From: Flavobacteriales bacterium
GTDB taxonomy: Bacteria > Bacteroidota > Bacteroidia > Flavobacteriales_C > GCA-002722245
Direction: 5' to 3'
Length of the DNA: 64,000 bases
Assembly: GCA_002722245.1 (NCBI GenBank)
Contig: PBLA01000001.1
Span: 22,292-86,291 of the forward strand
The notes below the pieces were generated by a model. That model was not told where the DNA came from. It saw nothing but the letters and a program-made list of their open reading frames with translations, and searched no databases. Made by a program: the position numbers and the translations under genes. This document shows positions 4,750 to 46,761 of the stretch, in pieces (positions within the stretch are counted from its first letter, which is position 1; each line of letters begins with the position of its first letter).

Positions 4750-5706
4750 GTGCCTATTTATAATTTTCCATACCGCTTAAAGTTTAAAACTCCCTTTAAA
4801 ATCGCATCGGTAGAGCGAACAGGGACAGATAACTTATATCTTAAGTTTACAAAAGACGGTTTTGTAGGTTGGGGAGAGGCCGTTTTTCCACCCTACATTG
4901 AGGAAAATCAGCAAACAGCAATTACACGTTTGGCTGATTTGAATTGGGGGTTTTTGGATGAAGCTGAATTGTTTCGATTAATTCAACAGAACCAAATTAT
5001 TTTAAAACAGGAACCATCCTTAGCTTGTGCTATGGAATGTTGTTTATTGAACTGGTTGGCGGCATTTAAAAAAATAGGGCTTCACGCGCTCTTGGGATTA
5101 AATGAAGTAAAAAAAGAAACCTCATATACGATTGGTATAAGTTCGGATCAAGCGATGGAGGAAAAGGTGGTTAATACGCCTGAAGCGACTTATTTTAAGT
5201 TAAAGGTTAATGAAAACGAAATAGAAAGAATTGTTAATACCTATGTTTCTCTTACCTCTAAACCTTTTGTTGTAGATGCTAACCAGGGTTTTTCTAATCG
5301 TGAAAAGGCGTTGTATTGGGCTTCTGAATTAGATAAAATGGGTGTTGCTTATTTTGAACAACCGTTTGATAAAGAGGATTTTGAATCGCATGAGTGGCTC
5401 AAAAATCATGTAAACATTCCCATTATTGCGGATGAGTCTTTTCAACGCATTACTGATCTTGAAAAAGCATTTAAATCCTTCGATGGGATTAATGTTAAAA
5501 TAATAAAAACGGGTGGTGTGTTGGAGGCTAAAAGGTGTTTGCTACAAGCAAAAAAATTAAAGATGATAACGGTTTTAGGCTGTATGTCTGGTTCGTCTAC
5601 TTCTATTCAGTCTGCATCTGCATTACGTGATTTGGCGGATTTTGTGGATTTGGATGGTGTGTATTTAATTGAAAATGACCCTGATTTGAATAAAATGGGA
5701 ATGTAA
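4750..5706 (+). CDS. dipeptide epimerase (L-Ala-D/L-Glu epimerase-like), enolase superfamily
   Basis: MLE-subgroup catalytic pattern: 'YFKLKV' (KxK), 'VDANQGF', 'FEQP', 'IIADES', 'NVKIIKTGG'. GTG start 20 nt after valS. Confidence 0.75.
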   Translation: MPIYNFPYRLKFKTPFKIASVERTGTDNLYLKFTKDGFVGWGEAVFPPYIEENQQTAITRLADLNWGFLDEAELFRLIQQNQIILKQEPSLACAMECCLLNWLAAFKKIGLHALLGLNEVKKETSYTIGISSDQAMEEKVVNTPEATYFKLKVNENEIERIVNTYVSLTSKPFVVDANQGFSNREKALYWASELDKMGVAYFEQPFDKEDFESHEWLKNHVNIPIIADESFQRITDLEKAFKSFDGINVKIIKTGGVLEAKRCLLQAKKLKMITVLGCMSGSSTSIQSASALRDLADFVDLDGVYLIENDPDLNKMGM

Positions 5707-5804
5707 AATACCATTCTTGGCTATTTATTTATGTATACGTATTATTTTGAGCCAATTGTCAAATTTTTGACGATTAATTTACTGAAGGAGTGTATTTTTA
5801 GGGT

Positions 5805-40264: not shown

Positions 40265-40840
40265 TTACCTGGAGCTTGATAGGTTGTTTTGTAAAGCGAT
40301 TAACTTATCAAAAACGTTAAGATCAGGTATAATAATTTTAATTGTTTTTATGTTATTGTTGTATTGAATTCGAGCAACTGTGTGTTCTCTCTCTACTGAT
40401 TGAATATGATCCCATGGAATAATTTCTGAATAAGAACCTGGAAGTTTAATTCCATTTTTATAAATTCTTATTGAATTCATAGTGCTTTGATATTTCATTC
40501 CAAAATACATTGCCAGAATCAAGGGTGCCACATAAATAAAAGGACTTTCTCGTTTAAATAAGTCCAGAAAATAGTCAATCGCATATTCCAATATAAAATA
40601 CAGTCCCAATGAAATGAATAGCGGTAGTGTATTTTTTAAAGAAACTCCCACTCTTATGGAGAAAATAATTGAATGAACGTCTTTTTTATGTAGTGTACCT
40701 ATATAGTAGCCAAAACCAATACAACATGTATTTATAAAAACTACAATGGGAAGTAGAAGCGGGAAGTCATAATGACCCAGAACATAAATGATTAAAAAAG
40801 AGAGGGTAATAGTTGCTTCAAAAATTCTATTTATCATCAA
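40265..40840 (-). CDS. hypothetical membrane protein with C-terminal soluble (PH-like?) domain
   Basis: 4 TM segments followed by about 70 soluble residues. ATGA overlap with the upstream ftsB-like gene. Confidence 0.5.
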   Translation of the reverse strand: MMINRIFEATITLSFLIIYVLGHYDFPLLLPIVVFINTCCIGFGYYIGTLHKKDVHSIIFSIRVGVSLKNTLPLFISLGLYFILEYAIDYFLDLFKRESPFIYVAPLILAMYFGMKYQSTMNSIRIYKNGIKLPGSYSEIIPWDHIQSVEREHTVARIQYNNNIKTIKIIIPDLNVFDKLIALQNNLSSSR

Positions 40841-41148
40841 TCCAGCATAAATATATCTTCACCATCTTTTTTCATCAAATAGTGCTCCCGCGCATATTTC
40901 TCCATGAACTCACTATTGTTCATGTTTCGAAGAAAAATAGTATTCTTTGCAGTTTCTATTTTTAATCGTCGTAGCTCTTTTTTTAATTCATTTTTTTGTT
41001 GGATTAATTCTGCATGAAAAAAGAAATTATAGTGATCAAAGAAAGAAATCCAAACAAGAAAAACAAAACTGGTTAAGAAGAATCGATTTTTAAAAAAGGC
41101 AGGGATGTTTTCTATTAAGTTCACCTTTTGAAGATAGTGGAATATCAC
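40837..41148 (-). CDS. septum formation initiator (FtsB/DivIC-like)
   Basis: About 100 aa with a single TM ('FLTSFVFLVWISFF') followed by a coiled coil 'ELIQQKNELKKELRRLKIE'. Non-ATG (GTG) start, so the exact start is uncertain. Confidence 0.6.
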   Translation of the reverse strand: MIFHYLQKVNLIENIPAFFKNRFFLTSFVFLVWISFFDHYNFFFHAELIQQKNELKKELRRLKIETAKNTIFLRNMNNSEFMEKYAREHYLMKKDGEDIFMLD

Positions 41149-41250
41149 GATGGATATTATCTGGTCTTTATTTTGTTTTAAAAAACCACTTTTTAATAAG
41201 TGATCAACATCAATAGCTTACCCCATTATGGAGTTCATTCTTAACCTGTC

Positions 41251-42087
41251 TTAAGTCAATGATTTTTTTCTCACCTTTTGCCAACCTAAAACGCTGAAAA
41301 GTCCTAATCCCATTAATACACCAATAGCAGGAACTGTAGGTATATCGAGAAATAGCGCAATAAAGTGACCACAGATACAACTCATAATACCAAAGCAAAC
41401 AGCAATGATCAAAAATGGTTTAAGTTTTTGAGTTATGACATGCGCAAATGATGCAGGTACAACTAATAATCCAATGACCATTATTGCTCCAACACTATCG
41501 AAACTATATACTGTGGAAACGCTTGACAGACCCAAAAGAAGATAGTTCCAAAAAGGAATAGAAATCCCTATAGATTTCGCGTATGCTTGATCAAAGCTGG
41601 TTAATTTAAAGCCTTTCAATCCCAGTAAAACAATAGGAGCTGTGATTAAAGAAATAATAATCAAATTAAAAGTAGGAGTGGGTATTCCCCATGTTTTAGG
41701 AACGATAGGGATCGTGTTAATGTCGCCAAATAAGACGCAGTCCACATCAATATCAGCATTTTTTGCTTGTGAAGTAATGAGTATAATTCCAATTGCAAAA
41801 AGGAGTGTGTAAATAATTCCAATTGAACTATCTTTTCCAAAACCTCCTATTCGATTCAACCACTCAATTAACAAAATAGCGATAATCCCAAATCCACTTG
41901 CACCAAGAAGCATCCAGAAAGAGTTGATTTCACCTGAAATCATAAAAGCAATAACAATACCAGGTAAAACAGCATGAGATAAGGCATCACCAATAAGACT
42001 CATTTTTCGAAGTACAAGAAAACTTCCCAGTAAACTGGAGTTTATGCCGATAATGCATGCAGTGAGTATAATCCAAAAATCAAACAT
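41251..42087 (-). CDS. metal ABC transporter permease (ABC-3/TroD-ZnuB family)
   Basis: 8-9 TM segments. 'GDALSHAVLPGI' is the ABC-3 signature. The start overlaps the upstream stop (TAATG). Confidence 0.88.
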   Translation of the reverse strand: MFDFWIILTACIIGINSSLLGSFLVLRKMSLIGDALSHAVLPGIVIAFMISGEINSFWMLLGASGFGIIAILLIEWLNRIGGFGKDSSIGIIYTLLFAIGIILITSQAKNADIDVDCVLFGDINTIPIVPKTWGIPTPTFNLIIISLITAPIVLLGLKGFKLTSFDQAYAKSIGISIPFWNYLLLGLSSVSTVYSFDSVGAIMVIGLLVVPASFAHVITQKLKPFLIIAVCFGIMSCICGHFIALFLDIPTVPAIGVLMGLGLFSVLGWQKVRKKSLT

Positions 42088-43385
42088 TAGTCTTCGTAAG
42101 GGATATTTTGTTGATGCGGATCGCTCGTTGGCCTCCCCAGTGTTTTTAATAATTCTGTTTCAAGGGATTTAGTCATGATGTGCTCAATGGATTCAGCACT
42201 TTCATGAACATGATCGGATTGTATTTGCATAAACTTTTCCATGTAAAGCTCCCACAATCTATGTATCCTAATAATTCTCTTTGCCTCTGCAATTCCTTTT
42301 TCAGTAAGCGTCCAAGCCCCATTCGCTTCAATTACAAACTTTTTTCTTTTTAAGATACTCAACCCTTTACTGAGATCAAAAGAAGCAAAAGGATGAAAAT
42401 TTTGAATCATTTGAACAGAATAACTTTGATCAAATTGGTTTTTGTGTTCACCTAATTTATACAGCGTTTTTAGGACATTATCCGAGATTATTTTATTTCG
42501 GTTTTGAATCCCCATTATTTTTTTTGTGATTAATCCCTTTCGAGATAGTAATGCGGACAAAATAGCGATGGTGGATAGTACTACAATAATCCAGGGGCCT
42601 GTAGGCATGTCTGGAAACAGATAGGAAACAAAAACACCCAAAATACTGCTTAAAGCTGCAAACGCACCAGACAATAAAATAGATTTTTTAAAGTGGTTGG
42701 TCCAGAAAAATGCAGAAGAGGCAGGAGTAATAATTAATGCACTCATCAGAATTATTCCAACTGTTTGAATTCCAATAGCAGTGCTCACGATAATTAATCC
42801 TGAAATTAGACTTTGAACAAGTTTGTTATTTAAACCAATTGTGTTTGCAAATCCCTGATCAAACAATGCAATTTTGAAGTGTCTATAAAATAAAATAACA
42901 ACCCCTAAAACAAGTCCACATAATCCACAAAAGAGATAGAGGTCTTTTCGAACAATCGTAGCTGCTTTTCCAAACAGAAAATCAGAAAGACCACTCTGCT
43001 GACTATTTCCTGAGTGTTGTATAATACTTAACAAAATAACACCTAAACTAAAGAGCACTGATAAGGCAATTGCAATGGCTGCATCTTTTTTAATTCGTGA
43101 GATTTTTGTTAACCAGTCTACAAGGAATACGGCAATTGCTCCAGCAAACATTCCTCCAGCTATTAAATAAATTGGATTTTTAACCCCAGAGAGCATAAAT
43201 CCTAAACATACACCTGGTAAAACAGAGTGGGAAACGGCATCAACAATTAATGCTTTTTTATTTAAAACAACTAAAACCCCTACAATACCGCACGTAAAAC
43301 CTAAAATTAACGTTCCAAAAAAAACGTTCGAAATATTGGCGTCTTGAAAAGAAAAAAAATAAATAAAATCGTCCCAAAATTTCAT
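42087..43385 (-). CDS. metal ABC transporter permease fused to a C-terminal DtxR/MntR-type repressor domain
   Basis: The first ~300 residues are ABC-3 permease ('VDAVSHSVLPGV'). The last ~130 aa align to the free-standing repressor encoded at 45094-45756: 'IRIHRLWELYMEKFMQIQSDHVHESAESIEHIM...LGRPTSDPHQQNIP' vs 'IRKHRLWEVFLVEKLKFGWDEIHEIAEQLEHIK...LGYPKNDPHGDPIP'. ATG 43385 lies 1 nt after the ATPase stop. Confidence 0.85.
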   Translation of the reverse strand: MKFWDDFIYFFSFQDANISNVFFGTLILGFTCGIVGVLVVLNKKALIVDAVSHSVLPGVCLGFMLSGVKNPIYLIAGGMFAGAIAVFLVDWLTKISRIKKDAAIAIALSVLFSLGVILLSIIQHSGNSQQSGLSDFLFGKAATIVRKDLYLFCGLCGLVLGVVILFYRHFKIALFDQGFANTIGLNNKLVQSLISGLIIVSTAIGIQTVGIILMSALIITPASSAFFWTNHFKKSILLSGAFAALSSILGVFVSYLFPDMPTGPWIIVVLSTIAILSALLSRKGLITKKIMGIQNRNKIISDNVLKTLYKLGEHKNQFDQSYSVQMIQNFHPFASFDLSKGLSILKRKKFVIEANGAWTLTEKGIAEAKRIIRIHRLWELYMEKFMQIQSDHVHESAESIEHIMTKSLETELLKTLGRPTSDPHQQNIPYED

Positions 43386-43386
43386 G

Positions 43387-44172
43387 TTACTCTCGAATTG
43401 GAAATTGTCGTTGTTTGTATACTTCACCCAATTGCTCAAGAATACTCAGATTACCTCCGTAAGTTTTTTGCAGAAGTTCAGTAGTATATACGTCGTTAGT
43501 GGGACCACTCGCAACGATTCGTTTGTTAATAAGAACCATCCAATCAAAATATTCCATTGCAGATTGAAGGTCGTGATGAACAACAAAAATTGTTTTTCCT
43601 TCCTGTTGAAGCGTTAAAAGAAGATCAACAATTGCTTTTTCACTGGCCATATCAACACCAGCAAAAGGCTCATCCATGAAGTACAAATCTGCCTCTTGAG
43701 CCAAAGCTCGGGCAATGAATACACGTTGTTGTTGTCCACCAGAAAGAGCCGAAATATGATGCTTTGCGAAATCCATCATTTTTACTTTTTTAAGCGCATC
43801 AATAGCAATTTGTTTATCCTGTTTTGTTAGGCGTTTGAAAAGACTTTTTTTACCATATCTTCCCATTTCTACAACATCAAGGACAGTTGCAGGAAAATCC
43901 CAGTCAACCGATTCTTTCTGGGGTACATAAGCTATTTTTTGTCGAACCTTTTTTAAAGGTTGATTAAAGATTTTTACATAACCACTTGCTGATGGAACAA
44001 GTTCCATCATGGCTTTTAATAGGGTGGATTTACCCGCACCATTTGGCCCTATAATACCGACCATTTTCCCCTTAGGAATGTTAAAATCCACATTCCATAA
44101 TACGGGTTTATTATTATAGGCAACCGTTAAATCGTGAATTTCAACAATAGCCTCTTCTACATGCTTAATCAT
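43387..44172 (-). CDS. metal ABC transporter ATP-binding protein
   Basis: Walker A 'GPNGAGKST', signature 'LSGGQQQR', Walker B 'LYFMDEP'. Confidence 0.92.
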   Translation of the reverse strand: MIKHVEEAIVEIHDLTVAYNNKPVLWNVDFNIPKGKMVGIIGPNGAGKSTLLKAMMELVPSASGYVKIFNQPLKKVRQKIAYVPQKESVDWDFPATVLDVVEMGRYGKKSLFKRLTKQDKQIAIDALKKVKMMDFAKHHISALSGGQQQRVFIARALAQEADLYFMDEPFAGVDMASEKAIVDLLLTLQQEGKTIFVVHHDLQSAMEYFDWMVLINKRIVASGPTNDVYTTELLQKTYGGNLSILEQLGEVYKQRQFPIRE

Positions 44173-45092
44173 TTGCTTAATGCGCTAACAATTGTTTGGG
44201 TATTTTTTTTAATCATTTTAATGTAGGTTTCTGCACCACTTTGAGCATCACCTAAACCATCGCTGTAGAGCGTTCCACCAATTTTTAGGTCTAGTCCTTT
44301 TGATCGGCACCCTTCAATGATTGCATTGATATTTTTTCTAGAAACAGAATTTTCTATGAAAATGGCAGGGATTTTTCTACTTACTATAAGATCAGTTAAT
44401 TCTGTTATTCCGCGAACAGAAATATCGGATGCGGTTGATATACCTTGTACACCTTTTACTTCAATACCAAATGCTCGTCCATAATATCCGAATGCATCGT
44501 GCGCTGTAATCAACACCCTAATTGAATCAGGTATTTTATTCATTTCACGTTTAACATAAAGTTCAGTGGCTAATAATTTTTTTGTGTAGGATTTTGTTGC
44601 AGAATCAATATAGTTTTGATGAATAGGGAATTTTTTGGAAAATTCTTTTCCTACAAGTTCTACGGATGTTGCAAATAAATTAACATCATGCCAAAAATGT
44701 GGGTCATGAGCTGTTCCAAACTCTGTAGTTGCTCTTAATCTTTCCTCAGGTACAATTTCTCCGAGTTTAACCACATGACGAGATTTTCCTATTTCATCAA
44801 TAGCATCCAGCAAGTTAGATTCAAAGTGAATACCATTACAGGCAACAGATTCTGCGTTTAACATCGCTTTCATTTCAGATGCTTTACTCTTGTAGGTATG
44901 GGGGTCAACTCCAGGACCCATTAATGCTTCGATTTCAAAGGGTGTAGGAGGAAGGATGTTCTTCATAGCATCAGCAATTACACCTGTTGTACAAATTACA
45001 TGAACGCTCGAAGATGACATCTTATTTTCATGCGATGAACATCCAATTATAATAAGAATGGAAAGAAGGGGAAGATAAAGCAGGTTTTTCAT
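44169..45092 (-). CDS. metal ABC transporter substrate-binding lipoprotein (TroA/ZnuA/PsaA cluster A-I)
   Basis: Lipobox 'IIIGC'. Metal-ligand contexts 'GVDPHTY' and 'DPHFWHD'; 'AHDAFGY'. ATG 45092 lies 1 nt after the repressor stop. Confidence 0.88.
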   Translation of the reverse strand: MKNLLYLPLLSILIIIGCSSHENKMSSSSVHVICTTGVIADAMKNILPPTPFEIEALMGPGVDPHTYKSKASEMKAMLNAESVACNGIHFESNLLDAIDEIGKSRHVVKLGEIVPEERLRATTEFGTAHDPHFWHDVNLFATSVELVGKEFSKKFPIHQNYIDSATKSYTKKLLATELYVKREMNKIPDSIRVLITAHDAFGYYGRAFGIEVKGVQGISTASDISVRGITELTDLIVSRKIPAIFIENSVSRKNINAIIEGCRSKGLDLKIGGTLYSDGLGDAQSGAETYIKMIKKNTQTIVSALSK

Positions 45093-45093
45093 A

Positions 45094-45756
45094 TTATTTT
45101 TCTTTGGAAACATTAAGGTTTTTAGCCACTAATTCTGAAAATGTCCGTTCAGTTTTTTGATTGACCAAAACTTTTAAGGACTTGTCAAATTGAAAGAAAT
45201 CTAAAATTTCAATGGATGAACCCAGTTTGAGGTCGATACTATCTAAATATCTTAAGAAATCTTTGGAGTCTTCAGAGACACCAATTAAAATTGATTTTTC
45301 ACCAATTGATAAATCATTTAATTTGTATTTTTTTAGAGTATGAAACTCGCCTTTTTTGTTTGGAATGGGATCACCATGAGGATCGTTTTTTGGATATCCC
45401 AAGTGCTCGTCCAATTTATCAATAAGTTTTGCGGATTTAATGTGCTCCAATTGCTCAGCAATTTCATGAATTTCATCCCATCCGAATTTAAGTTTCTCTA
45501 CCAAAAAAACTTCCCACAAACGATGTTTTCTTATTACATGTAATGCAATTTGTTCACCTTCTTTTGAAAGTGTTGTTCCTTGATATTTTATATAGTTTAC
45601 TAAACCTTTGTCGGCCAATTTTTTTACCATATCGGATACCGAGGAAGCTTTTGTAGAGAGCTCTTCAGCAATTGCATTGGTGGAAACTCCTTCTTTTGAT
45701 GGTCCGCTTAACTTAAAAATTGCTTTTAGATAATCTTCGGTGGTACTGGTTTGCAT
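45094..45756 (-). CDS. DtxR/MntR-family metal-dependent transcriptional repressor with C-terminal FeoA/SH3-like domain
   Basis: wHTH 'TEDYLKAIFKL...TNAIAEELSTKASSVSDMVKKL', dimerisation/metal region 'HRLWEVFL...IHEIAEQLEH', 'DPHGDPIP', then an SH3-like tail. Confidence 0.9.
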   Translation of the reverse strand: MQTSTTEDYLKAIFKLSGPSKEGVSTNAIAEELSTKASSVSDMVKKLADKGLVNYIKYQGTTLSKEGEQIALHVIRKHRLWEVFLVEKLKFGWDEIHEIAEQLEHIKSAKLIDKLDEHLGYPKNDPHGDPIPNKKGEFHTLKKYKLNDLSIGEKSILIGVSEDSKDFLRYLDSIDLKLGSSIEILDFFQFDKSLKVLVNQKTERTFSELVAKNLNVSKEK

Positions 45757-45783
45757 TTACTCTAAGATTTAGACAAAGATAAA

Positions 45784-45791
45784 CAAATTTA
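45784..45791 (-). promoter_or_regulatory. -7 promoter box TAAATTTG (minus strand) of the metal-uptake operon
   Basis: Plus-strand caaattta. 27 nt upstream of ATG 45756. Overlaps the palindrome at 45787-45804. Confidence 0.5.
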
Positions 45792-45804
45792 GACTTGTCT
45801 AAAT
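45787..45804. promoter_or_regulatory. candidate DtxR/MntR operator: perfect 8-2-8 palindrome ATTTAGAC-TT-GTCTAAAT
   Basis: Perfect inverted repeat read directly from the sequence. An extra ATTTAGAC half-site lies at 45767-45774, 20 nt away. Confidence 0.55.
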
Positions 45805-45934: not shown

Positions 45935-46342
45935 ATGAAAAAGCTTCTTTTTTTGGTGCTTACTCTTACAGTTTTAGGTTGCACGAATAATAATGGTACG
46001 GTATTATGGAGAGTTTGGTATGCTGTTCAGGTACCGCCTAATTACGATTTGAAAATCACCTACAATTCGGATAAGTTTTTTGATTCGGGCGTGCATGATA
46101 CGATTTATGTTCATGACAGTAGCTATGTACAGCAATTAGATGGTTTTTGGATCGGTCAACGCCTTCAAGAGAACAAAGAACATGGCTATTATATAAATAT
46201 TAAAATTGATTCCTTAACACCTTATGATGGTCATTTAGGTGTATTTGTATATGCGAATGATACATCTTTACTGGATTCTGTTTTATATCCATATGGAAGA
46301 AAAGAAATCACCCTTCAAGGTGATATTCCAATCAATTTTTAA
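45935..46342 (+). CDS. hypothetical lipoprotein
   Basis: Lipobox 'LTVLGC'. No family recognised. Confidence 0.5.
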   Translation: MKKLLFLVLTLTVLGCTNNNGTVLWRVWYAVQVPPNYDLKITYNSDKFFDSGVHDTIYVHDSSYVQQLDGFWIGQRLQENKEHGYYINIKIDSLTPYDGHLGVFVYANDTSLLDSVLYPYGRKEITLQGDIPINF

Positions 46343-46344
46343 CT

Positions 46345-46761
46345 ATGCAACGAAAAATTTTAATAACAGCGGCGGTTATGGGGGTATTATCCGTTATAAT
46401 TGGTGCTTGGGCTGCTCACGGTATACAAGGCGTGATTTTGGATTCTGATCCTGATAAAATGAGTAAAATTGATAGTTTTAAGGTTGGAGTTCGTTACCAA
46501 TTTTATCATACTTTTCTTCTTTTGTTTTTGAGTTTAATACCAATTGAACGGTTTTCTAGTTTATTGTCTATTGTGTATAGATTAGTTGTTATAGGCGTAG
46601 TCCTGTTTTCAGGATCAATTTATGCATTAGCGCTCAAAAGTCAACTCGGGCTTGAAGGGGCTACAAAGTTTCTAGGTCCTATAACTCCTATTGGAGGCTT
46701 AACGTTAATTGTTGCCTGGAGTATATTGGTGTTCTATGGTTTAAAACAAAAAAAAATATGA
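46345..46761 (+). CDS. DUF423 (YgdD/TMEM256-like) membrane protein
   Basis: 4 TM segments. 'GAWAAHG' near the N-terminus and a G-rich last helix are typical of DUF423. Confidence 0.65.
   Translation: MQRKILITAAVMGVLSVIIGAWAAHGIQGVILDSDPDKMSKIDSFKVGVRYQFYHTFLLLFLSLIPIERFSSLLSIVYRLVVIGVVLFSGSIYALALKSQLGLEGATKFLGPITPIGGLTLIVAWSILVFYGLKQKKI

Follow-up and report, generated by a model that had tools for sequence, protein, structure and literature searches.

Why would a metal importer operon that opens with its own soluble repressor carry a second DtxR-like module on one of its permeases? This question is raised by five genes on the minus strand of a 64,000-nucleotide stretch of a marine Flavobacteriales bacterium genome (positions 22,292 to 86,291 of contig PBLA01000001.1, assembly GCA_002722245.1), which we analyzed as a whole and refer to as the window. 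In order of transcription, the genes encode a soluble DtxR-family repressor, a TroA-like binding lipoprotein, an ATP-binding cassette (ABC) ATPase, an ABC-3 permease fused to a DtxR-like module, and a second ABC-3 permease (Table 1). We suggest that the soluble repressor controls the promoter of the operon, and we tentatively propose that the fused module acts mainly on the transporter itself.

Excess manganese, iron, or zinc is toxic, so metal importers need a quick shut-off, and to our knowledge no mechanism of post-translational control has been described for ABC-3 importers. Studies of the permease-DtxR fusion are confined to Chlamydia, a genus in which genetic work is difficult and the fusion is the sole regulator. 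Bacteroidota offer a natural comparison, as hundreds of species, including members of cultured genera such as Algoriphagus, Pontibacter, Ekhidna, and Chryseobacterium, encode the fusion beside a conventional repressor. A conserved metal site, a fixed connector, and a DNA-reading surface that is free to vary together make a testable hypothesis, namely that the module regulates the transporter and not the promoter.

Operon type and occurrence in related genomes

The five genes form a metal ABC importer operon of the Tro/Ytg type (cluster A-I), with an ATPase and two permeases that are typical components of ABC-3 importers. The initial annotation of this DNA described the five genes as one tightly coupled unit. 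This description is supported by the gene coordinates and all four junctions, which were borne out when the sequence was read again, and by independent gene calls: public contigs encoding an identical fused protein, including one from a Tara Oceans run, reproduce all five protein lengths given in Table 1. The close spacing is real, but it is not remarkable, because tight or overlapping junctions are an ordinary feature of bacterial operons and similar junctions recur in relatives (for example, in loci L005, L033, and L045).

An operon with two DtxR paralogs is not unusual. Fusion of a permease to a repressor is the known YtgC-YtgR type (PMC5599777, PMC6504234), and permease-DtxR fusions have been reported in 11 phyla (PMC5599777). 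We compared gene order across 80 loci from species-representative genomes, almost all of them Bacteroidota. Since 44 of these 80 loci carry the same five genes in the order seen in the window, the two-paralog arrangement is a common Bacteroidota form and not a peculiarity of this genome. In 23 loci, no intact repressor gene immediately preceded the operon on its own strand; 19 of these had no repressor gene in the fetched stretch of DNA, and four had one nearby that was split or on the opposite strand.

Beyond this sample, the nearest named relatives in a homolog search were metagenome-assembled genomes (MAGs) of Flavobacteriales and Crocinitomicaceae. A single search returned more than 2000 homologs of the fused protein, and among the best 120 most matched PF02742 and none matched PF01325. 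The module alone was matched by 434 clusters (50% identity) at E ≤ 1e-10, mostly as the C-terminal end of proteins of 410–470 amino acids.

The soluble repressor and its candidate operator

The first gene was annotated as a soluble repressor with three domains, and all three were matched above Pfam cut-offs: a winged helix-turn-helix (PF01325, 3e-18), a metal-binding/dimerization domain (PF02742, 2e-30), and an SH3-like (FeoA) domain (PF04023, 1e-7). Structural database matches to Mycobacterium tuberculosis MntR (5zr4, 2e-40), SloR (5cvi, 3e-32), and ScaR (3hrs, 9e-27) cover residues 5–199. As judged from its sequence, the repressor belongs to the SloR/ScaR/MntR-like class of the DtxR/MntR family.

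The predicted metal ligands of the repressor are E7, D8, H78, E82, H97, E101, E104, H105, D125, and H127, positions that we take to correspond to the metal sites of ScaR, SloR, and MntR. They are of the D/N-E-E-H and E-D-H type and include no methionine or cysteine. Such a set of oxygen and nitrogen ligands is, we assume, of the manganese-sensor type, and it points to Mn(II) as the probable signal, with zinc or iron possible too. None of the five proteins reached any NCBIfam equivalog cut-off, so curated models do not show which metal (Mn, Zn, or Fe) is transported. At residue 8 (approximately 45733–45735), the repressor in the window has aspartate, compared with asparagine in 42 of 45 orthologs, and this minority state might shift metal preference.

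A perfect palindrome, located 32 nt upstream of the start codon of the repressor gene, is a candidate operator. It falls outside the coordinates covered by the initial annotation (45788–45803 versus 41251–45756) and is the only non-coding match to TTAG-N6-CTAA in the 64-kb window. The other matches in the window were considered as signs of further regulon members and dismissed, as every one was inside coding sequence. Across the related loci, the palindrome preceded the first gene in 35 of the 44 five-gene loci with a repressor and in 10 of the 19 loci without a repressor gene in the fetched stretch, with 81 matches to TTAG-N6-CTAA overall in 933 kb of locus DNA. An AT-rich palindrome at the promoter of a regulated transporter is typical of the SloR/ScaR/MntR-like class, and the candidate operator fits this description.

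The DNA-facing positions of the repressor's recognition helix are conserved. Mean conservation across 45 genomes, expressed as pairwise identity, was 0.50 for the helix-turn-helix and wing, 0.61 for the recognition helix, and 0.71 for the dimerization half. Because both the recognition helix and the palindrome are conserved, the soluble repressor is likely the autoregulator. We propose that a single promoter upstream of the repressor gene would drive all five genes, and that the metal-loaded repressor would bind the TTTAG-N6-CTAAA palindrome that overlaps this promoter and so switch off the operon, including its own gene. The view of a single operon autoregulated by the soluble repressor via the conserved palindrome is well supported, with the binding step predicted.

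The palindrome is not universal in this position. In L003, L015, L018, L023, L036, and L041 (Pontibacter), the approximately 100 nt upstream of the repressor gene had no TTAG-N6-CTAA palindrome. Arrays of short repeats were present upstream in at least L023, L036, and L041, and were inverted in L023 and L041 (e.g., GTGAGTGAGCGATTGAGTGAATGAGTG ... CATTCACTCAACCGCTCACTCAC).

The module fused to the permease

The initial annotation proposed a second DtxR-like repressor domain on one of the permeases. The fusion, the fold, and a PF02742 match all support this proposal, but the PF01325 signature is absent and the helix-turn-helix is visible as a fold only. In the fused protein, the ABC-3 match covers residues 15–279 and the PF02742 match residues 361–429. 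We modeled the protein as a monomer with AlphaFold2 from a 40-sequence alignment, obtaining a mean predicted local distance difference test (pLDDT) score of 80 and values of 81–93 across residues 300–390. In the model, the membrane part resembles PsaC (7kyp; Foldseek, target-normalized TM-score of 0.9), and the module contains a winged helix-turn-helix (helices at 324–330 and 335–347, wing at 351–360) followed by three helices of the dimerization domain. About 130 columns of the module aligned with DR2539, IdeR, DtxR, and SloR, spanning both the winged helix-turn-helix and the dimerization domain, with a root mean square deviation of 1.9–2.9 Å (1.9 Å for DR2539). At the level of the modeled fold, the second repressor domain is thus real, minus the SH3-like domain, which is absent from the tethered module.

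The connection between permease and module appears rigid. A single unbroken helix (residues 285–315) spans the connector and helix 1 of the module in the model. Among the 241 fused proteins in which we found both the PTGP motif, with which the last membrane helix begins, and the motif of the ligand asparagine, the distance between the two was 39–40 residues in every case, including MAG proteins labeled Chlamydia sp. and Planctomycetota. By contrast, the helix-turn-helix segment of fused proteins varied between 56 and 80 residues in length. The second permease gene has no such module. If the two permeases pair as in other two-permease importers, each transporter would therefore hold one module, and no DNA-binding dimer could form within a single transporter.

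The metal site of the module is strongly conserved. Its dimerization half is 41% identical to that of the soluble repressor over 71 residues, and its ligands equal those of the repressor wherever the two align, with almost no variation among 81 fused sequences. The ligand positions are E/D302, N303 (histidine in 12 sequences and asparagine in 69), K306, H375, W378, E379, H394, E398, E401, H402, D422, and H424, arranged in the motifs E/D-N-x-L-K, HRLWE, H..E..EH, and DPH. Across the 81 sequences, H375, W378, E379, H394, E401, and H402 were invariant, and D422 and H424 nearly so. The tryptophan of HRLWE was absent from all structural database relatives for which alignments were shown; it is present in both paralogs and in all but one of the Bacteroidota repressor orthologs. 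In one subclade (P0036, P0041, and P0045, 62%–67% identical to the fused protein of the window), unrelated sequence stands in place of the C-terminal ligand motif DPH..IPY, HNLWE is found in place of HRLWE, and one of the two metal sites has probably been lost.

No part of the fused protein evolves faster than the module's DNA-reading head. Pairwise identity across the same 45 genomes was 0.23 for the helix-turn-helix and wing and 0.28 for the recognition helix, compared with 0.32 for the connector, 0.55 for the membrane domain, and 0.61 for the dimerization half. Even in relatives that are 70%–80% identical overall, the helix-turn-helix was 43% identical to that of the window, versus approximately 80% for the flanking domains. 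The conserved positions of the module's recognition helix (L338, G341, L342, and L345) are all buried, and positions equivalent to the DNA contacts of DtxR, which we mapped from what we take to be its contacting residues, vary. The fused protein of the window had no PF01325 match, and only two of 40 fused members matched this family at E ≤ 1. A hidden Markov model of the repressor's N-terminal domain scored a median of 4 bits on fusions versus 110 on repressors, and the corresponding model of the dimerization domain scored 63 versus 136 bits. The initial annotation spoke of two homologous DNA-binding modules; this wording is too strong for a tethered winged helix-turn-helix that PF01325 does not recognize and whose identity among genomes is 0.23, versus 0.50 in the soluble repressor, in loci where the operator is conserved.

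The helix-turn-helix of fused proteins scored slightly higher where neither a repressor gene nor the palindrome was near (median 11.4 versus 4.7 bits, one-sided p = 0.006, n = 9 versus 58). We consider this weak trend suggestive, as it is uncorrected for phylogeny and all scores are low. We also note a free-standing, two-domain protein of 134 amino acids (P0209), encoded on a 1.1-kb ENA metagenome contig, that combines a canonical repressor-like helix-turn-helix (PF01325, 7e-15) with a fusion-type dimerization half and could reflect recombination between the two paralogs.

Possible roles of the module

We favor the view that the module exerts feedback control on the transporter, because it has the same ligands as the repressor, is joined by a rigid helix of fixed length, and occurs on only one permease. 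In the DtxR family, metal binding bridges helix 1 and the dimerization domain. In the module, a homolog of Chlamydia YtgR, this bridge would join the invariant Asn303 to Glu398, Glu401, and His402. Helix 1, which bears a ligand, would rigidly continue the last membrane helix over a fixed length, and bound metal would therefore pull on the permease and throttle import once the cytoplasm is replete. The module would then be mainly a cytoplasmic metal sensor on the transporter, not a second reader of the operator, and could provide fast feedback inhibition that complements slower transcriptional repression. We infer that it senses the same metal as the soluble repressor. Taken as a whole, the combination of repression by the soluble protein with feedback control by the module is the reading we would choose, and we hold it tentatively, at slightly below even confidence. 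A wider claim is more doubtful, although it deserves consideration: across ABC-3 fusions, the module may primarily be a built-in metal gauge that is mechanically coupled through the rigid helix and causes trans-inhibition, with the DNA head freed from constraint in Bacteroidota, where a canonical soluble paralog handles transcription.

Several observations weigh against a transporter-centered role. The only fusion studied experimentally, YtgC-YtgR of C. trachomatis, undergoes cleavage to release a domain that binds DNA and acts as a repressor of ytgABCD and trpBA (PMC5599777, PMC6504234, PMC7755916). Fusions of other phyla, including a MAG protein labeled Chlamydia sp., also lack a PF01325 hit. 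The winged helix-turn-helix fold and a net positive charge (median +4) are kept in all relatives, which suggests that the head still does something. In the 10 of 19 operons that have the palindrome and no repressor gene in the fetched stretch, the fused module could bind the palindrome, unless a repressor is encoded elsewhere in the genome. Finally, our structural model is of a monomer without partners.

These observations bear on an alternative in which the fused protein is cleaved as in Chlamydia, and the released module dimerizes, binds metal, and serves as a second sequence-specific repressor. Its targets could be its own promoter or other genes, and it could act beside the soluble repressor, possibly responding at another metal threshold. 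The Chlamydia precedent has the same architecture and gene order (PMC5599777, PMC6504234, PMC7755916). A complete winged helix-turn-helix and dimerization fold is predicted at high confidence with the ligand set intact, the module's helix-turn-helix has a net positive charge, the palindrome also precedes operons without a nearby repressor gene, and a non-canonical helix-turn-helix is found family-wide, Chlamydiota included. For this last reason, we dismissed the missing PF01325 match as proof of lost DNA binding: the absence of a Pfam match alone proves nothing, because it is family-wide and DNA binding after cleavage is reported for the C. trachomatis member. What still holds is a comparative argument. 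The same genomes keep the operator and the reading surface of the soluble repressor, but the DNA-facing positions of the module's recognition helix vary despite the conserved operator, which argues against an operator-specific role. Additionally, the promoters of related loci had no second conserved operator type, the connector is a continuous helix of fixed length and not a variable, flexible linker, and a second repressor would be redundant with the canonical one encoded first. We regard a released second repressor as the main alternative, on the unlikely side.

The initial annotation suggested that the two paralogs might form heterodimers or that the tethered copy might titrate the soluble one. 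Pairing is conceivable, as the metal ligands are equivalent at every aligned position, and the interaction itself is a prediction from sequence. In this scenario, the module would pair with a monomer of the soluble repressor in a metal-dependent way and transporter abundance would tune repression, either because the repressor is held at the membrane or because the dimer has one defective DNA-reading head. The 41% identity between the dimerization halves is consistent with pairing, as are the equivalent ligand sets, including HRLWE in both paralogs with a tryptophan unseen in the aligned structural relatives. A module that is alone in its transporter, if the permeases pair, would lack a partner, and the P0209 hybrid suggests that the halves are interchangeable. 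However, modules with HRLWE and EN.LK occur without an adjacent soluble repressor in a Chlamydia sp. MAG, in a Planctomycetota MAG, and in the 19 loci already described. Titration is therefore not the ancestral or general role of the module, and the idea that it is the core role did not stand. We consider it an unlikely explanation for the operon in the window.

The module could also be an evolutionary leftover or serve a purely structural purpose, such as permease folding, assembly, or stability, with no metal-dependent regulation. The fast evolution of the helix-turn-helix region and the subclade without the C-terminal DPH..IPY motif (P0036, P0041, and P0045) fit such a view. In opposition, approximately ten ligand positions are invariant or nearly so in 81 sequences from very distant genomes, the module is kept in 434 clusters, and the connector length is fixed. 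We interpret invariant ligands, retention, and a fixed connector as indicating that metal binding is under strong purifying selection, and find a leftover or purely structural module highly improbable.

Other features of the operon and its surroundings

The coordinates of the operon features are collected in Table 1.

Table 1. Features of the metal importer operon and its upstream and downstream regions (positions in the window).
Feature	Position	Strand	Description
Soluble DtxR-family repressor	45756..45094	-	220 aa; followed by TAA-T-ATG
TroA-like substrate-binding lipoprotein	45092..44169	-	307 aa; PF01297, 1e-59; signal peptide and lipobox (...IIIGC); followed by ATGA overlap
ABC ATPase	44172..43387	-	261 aa; PF00005, 5e-33; Mn/Fe ABC ATPase models are the closest in NCBIfam, none reaching cut-off; followed by TAA-C-ATG
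Permease fused to DtxR-like module	43385..42087	-	432 aa; followed by TAATG overlap
Fused permease, membrane part (residues 1–284)	42534..43385	-	TroC-like; PF00950, 5e-60
Fused permease, connector (residues 285–299)	42489..42533	-	Basic helix from last membrane helix to module helix 1
Fused permease, winged helix-turn-helix of module (residues 300–360)	42306..42488	-	Invariant DN.LK in helix 1
Fused permease, metal-binding/dimerization half (residues 361–432 and stop codon)	42087..42305	-	PF02742, 3e-21
Second ABC-3 permease	42087..41251	-	278 aa; TroD-like; PF00950, 4e-51; stops just past last membrane helix; final gene of operon
Candidate operator	45788..45803		TTTAGAC-AA-GTCTAAA, core TTAG-N6-CTAA; perfect palindrome (inverted repeat I5, 8 + 8 nt, 100% complementary)
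Extra half-site	45767..45774		Direct repeat D1 of ATTTAGAC (GTCTAAAT on coding strand); 20 nt from palindrome arm
Two TAnnTTTG motifs	45774..45791	-	TAAATTTG at 45791..45784 and TATCTTTG at 45781..45774
Weak hairpin with U-run	41180..41205	-	46 nt past last stop; candidate, possible transcript end

The binding protein is closest to TroA of Treponema pallidum (1toa, 3e-64). Four motifs (DPH, DPHxW, AHDAFGY, and SD) are identical to TroA in the alignment, and we take these to hold the His/His/His/Asp metal ligands. A TroA/PsaA/ZnuA-fold binding protein with a His-His-His-Asp site and no His-rich loop, as found here, is characteristic of Tro-type cluster A-I importers.

Downstream of the palindrome, an extra GTCTAAA half-site is present, and the two TAnnTTTG motifs overlap an operator arm and this half-site. 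The motif pair resembles the Bacteroidetes -7 promoter element, and we list it as a candidate only. The full Bacteroidetes -33/-7 pattern was found neither within the operon nor upstream of it, and its count in the window was no higher than chance, so its absence is evidence neither for nor against internal promoters. Similarly uninformative was a scan for sigma-70 promoters and terminators between 40800 and 46400, as counts were not above those of shuffled sequences. An Rfam scan of the whole window gave zero matches and thus no riboswitch. The hairpin beyond the last gene was missed by the terminator scan, and its folding z-score of -1.8 was not significant.

On the same strand, a DivIC/FtsB-like gene (103 aa, 40837–41148) begins approximately 100 nt past the last stop of the operon. 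Read-through into this gene is possible, as only the weak hairpin intervenes. On the plus strand, a gene for a predicted lipoprotein of 135 aa with no Pfam hit (45935–46342) diverges from the operon across the 178-bp intergenic region that bears the operator, and is followed by a gene for a DUF423 membrane protein (46345–46761).

Some related loci differed between the two permease genes. In L011, L078, and L079, gaps of approximately 800 nt separate the fused permease from the second permease. In L083, a gene for 114 aa that matches 23S_rRNA_IVP (PF05635) lies between them (5443–5787), and both permease genes appear to be split. Among the short, seemingly free-standing modules (P0130 and similar proteins), the one examined is in this locus, and we rejected it as a separate form: with both permease genes apparently broken, it is probably an assembly or frameshift artifact.

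Comparison with known systems

Trans-inhibited importers such as MetNI and ModBC provide a functional parallel to the role that we favor, feedback control by the module. In these importers, uptake is shut off by a cytoplasmic substrate-binding domain once the substrate is replete. The parallel extends to function only: their regulatory domains are on the ATPase and have an unrelated fold, whereas in the window the domain is DtxR-like and on the permease, and the ATPase has no additional domain at its C-terminus or elsewhere. We found no experimental support in the literature for trans-inhibition in ABC-3 importers.

The soluble repressor compares most closely with SloR, ScaR, and MntR, which it matches over three domains, and like them it adjoins a metal ABC importer that it presumably controls. 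It differs in that most Bacteroidota orthologs have asparagine at the helix-1 ligand, and the TTTAG-N6-CTAAA operator is predicted from sequence.

With troABCDR of T. pallidum, the operon shares a TroA-type binding protein, two distinct permease genes, and an operon-encoded DtxR-family regulator. TroR autoregulates its operon (PMC5599777). However, TroR is a free-standing protein encoded by the last gene, whereas the free-standing regulator in the window is encoded by the first gene and includes an SH3-like domain. In addition, the TroC-like permease of the window bears a two-domain module resembling TroR.

The closest system overall is ytgABCD of C. trachomatis (YtgC-YtgR, CT069/CTL0325), which has the same order of binding protein, ATPase, ABC-3 permease with DtxR-like module, and second ABC-3 permease. 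As in the window, an N-terminal ABC-3 domain is followed in-frame by a C-terminal two-domain module without an SH3-like domain. For the sequence comparison, we used a MAG protein labeled Chlamydia sp. (P0238) to stand in for CT069. It matches the module at E 7e-16 and shares the EN.LK, HRLWE, H..AEE.EH, and DPH motifs and a 40-residue connector with the fused protein of the window. The systems differ in regulation. YtgR is the only such regulator in Chlamydia, but here the fused module is not the sole DtxR-type regulator of the operon, as a canonical soluble repressor is the first gene and has a matching conserved operator. Proteolytic release of YtgR was shown by immunoblot (PMC5599777, PMC7755916), and its DNA binding has also been shown in Chlamydia; the module of the window is known from sequence and a model, in which the connector is predicted to be a continuous helix. 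Indirectly, a variable recognition helix next to a conserved operator argues against operator-specific reading by this module.

In a full-text literature search, we found no description of the two-regulator form or of a transporter-regulating role for the module. If the module does regulate the transporter, the reading of the Chlamydia system would change, and its cleaved repressor would represent one particular form of a wider and different mechanism; if not, the locus is another YtgCR-like operon with a redundant regulator. Together, these comparisons place the operon within a known fusion type and a common two-paralog arrangement, and what sets it apart from YtgCR is the canonical soluble paralog encoded as its first gene.

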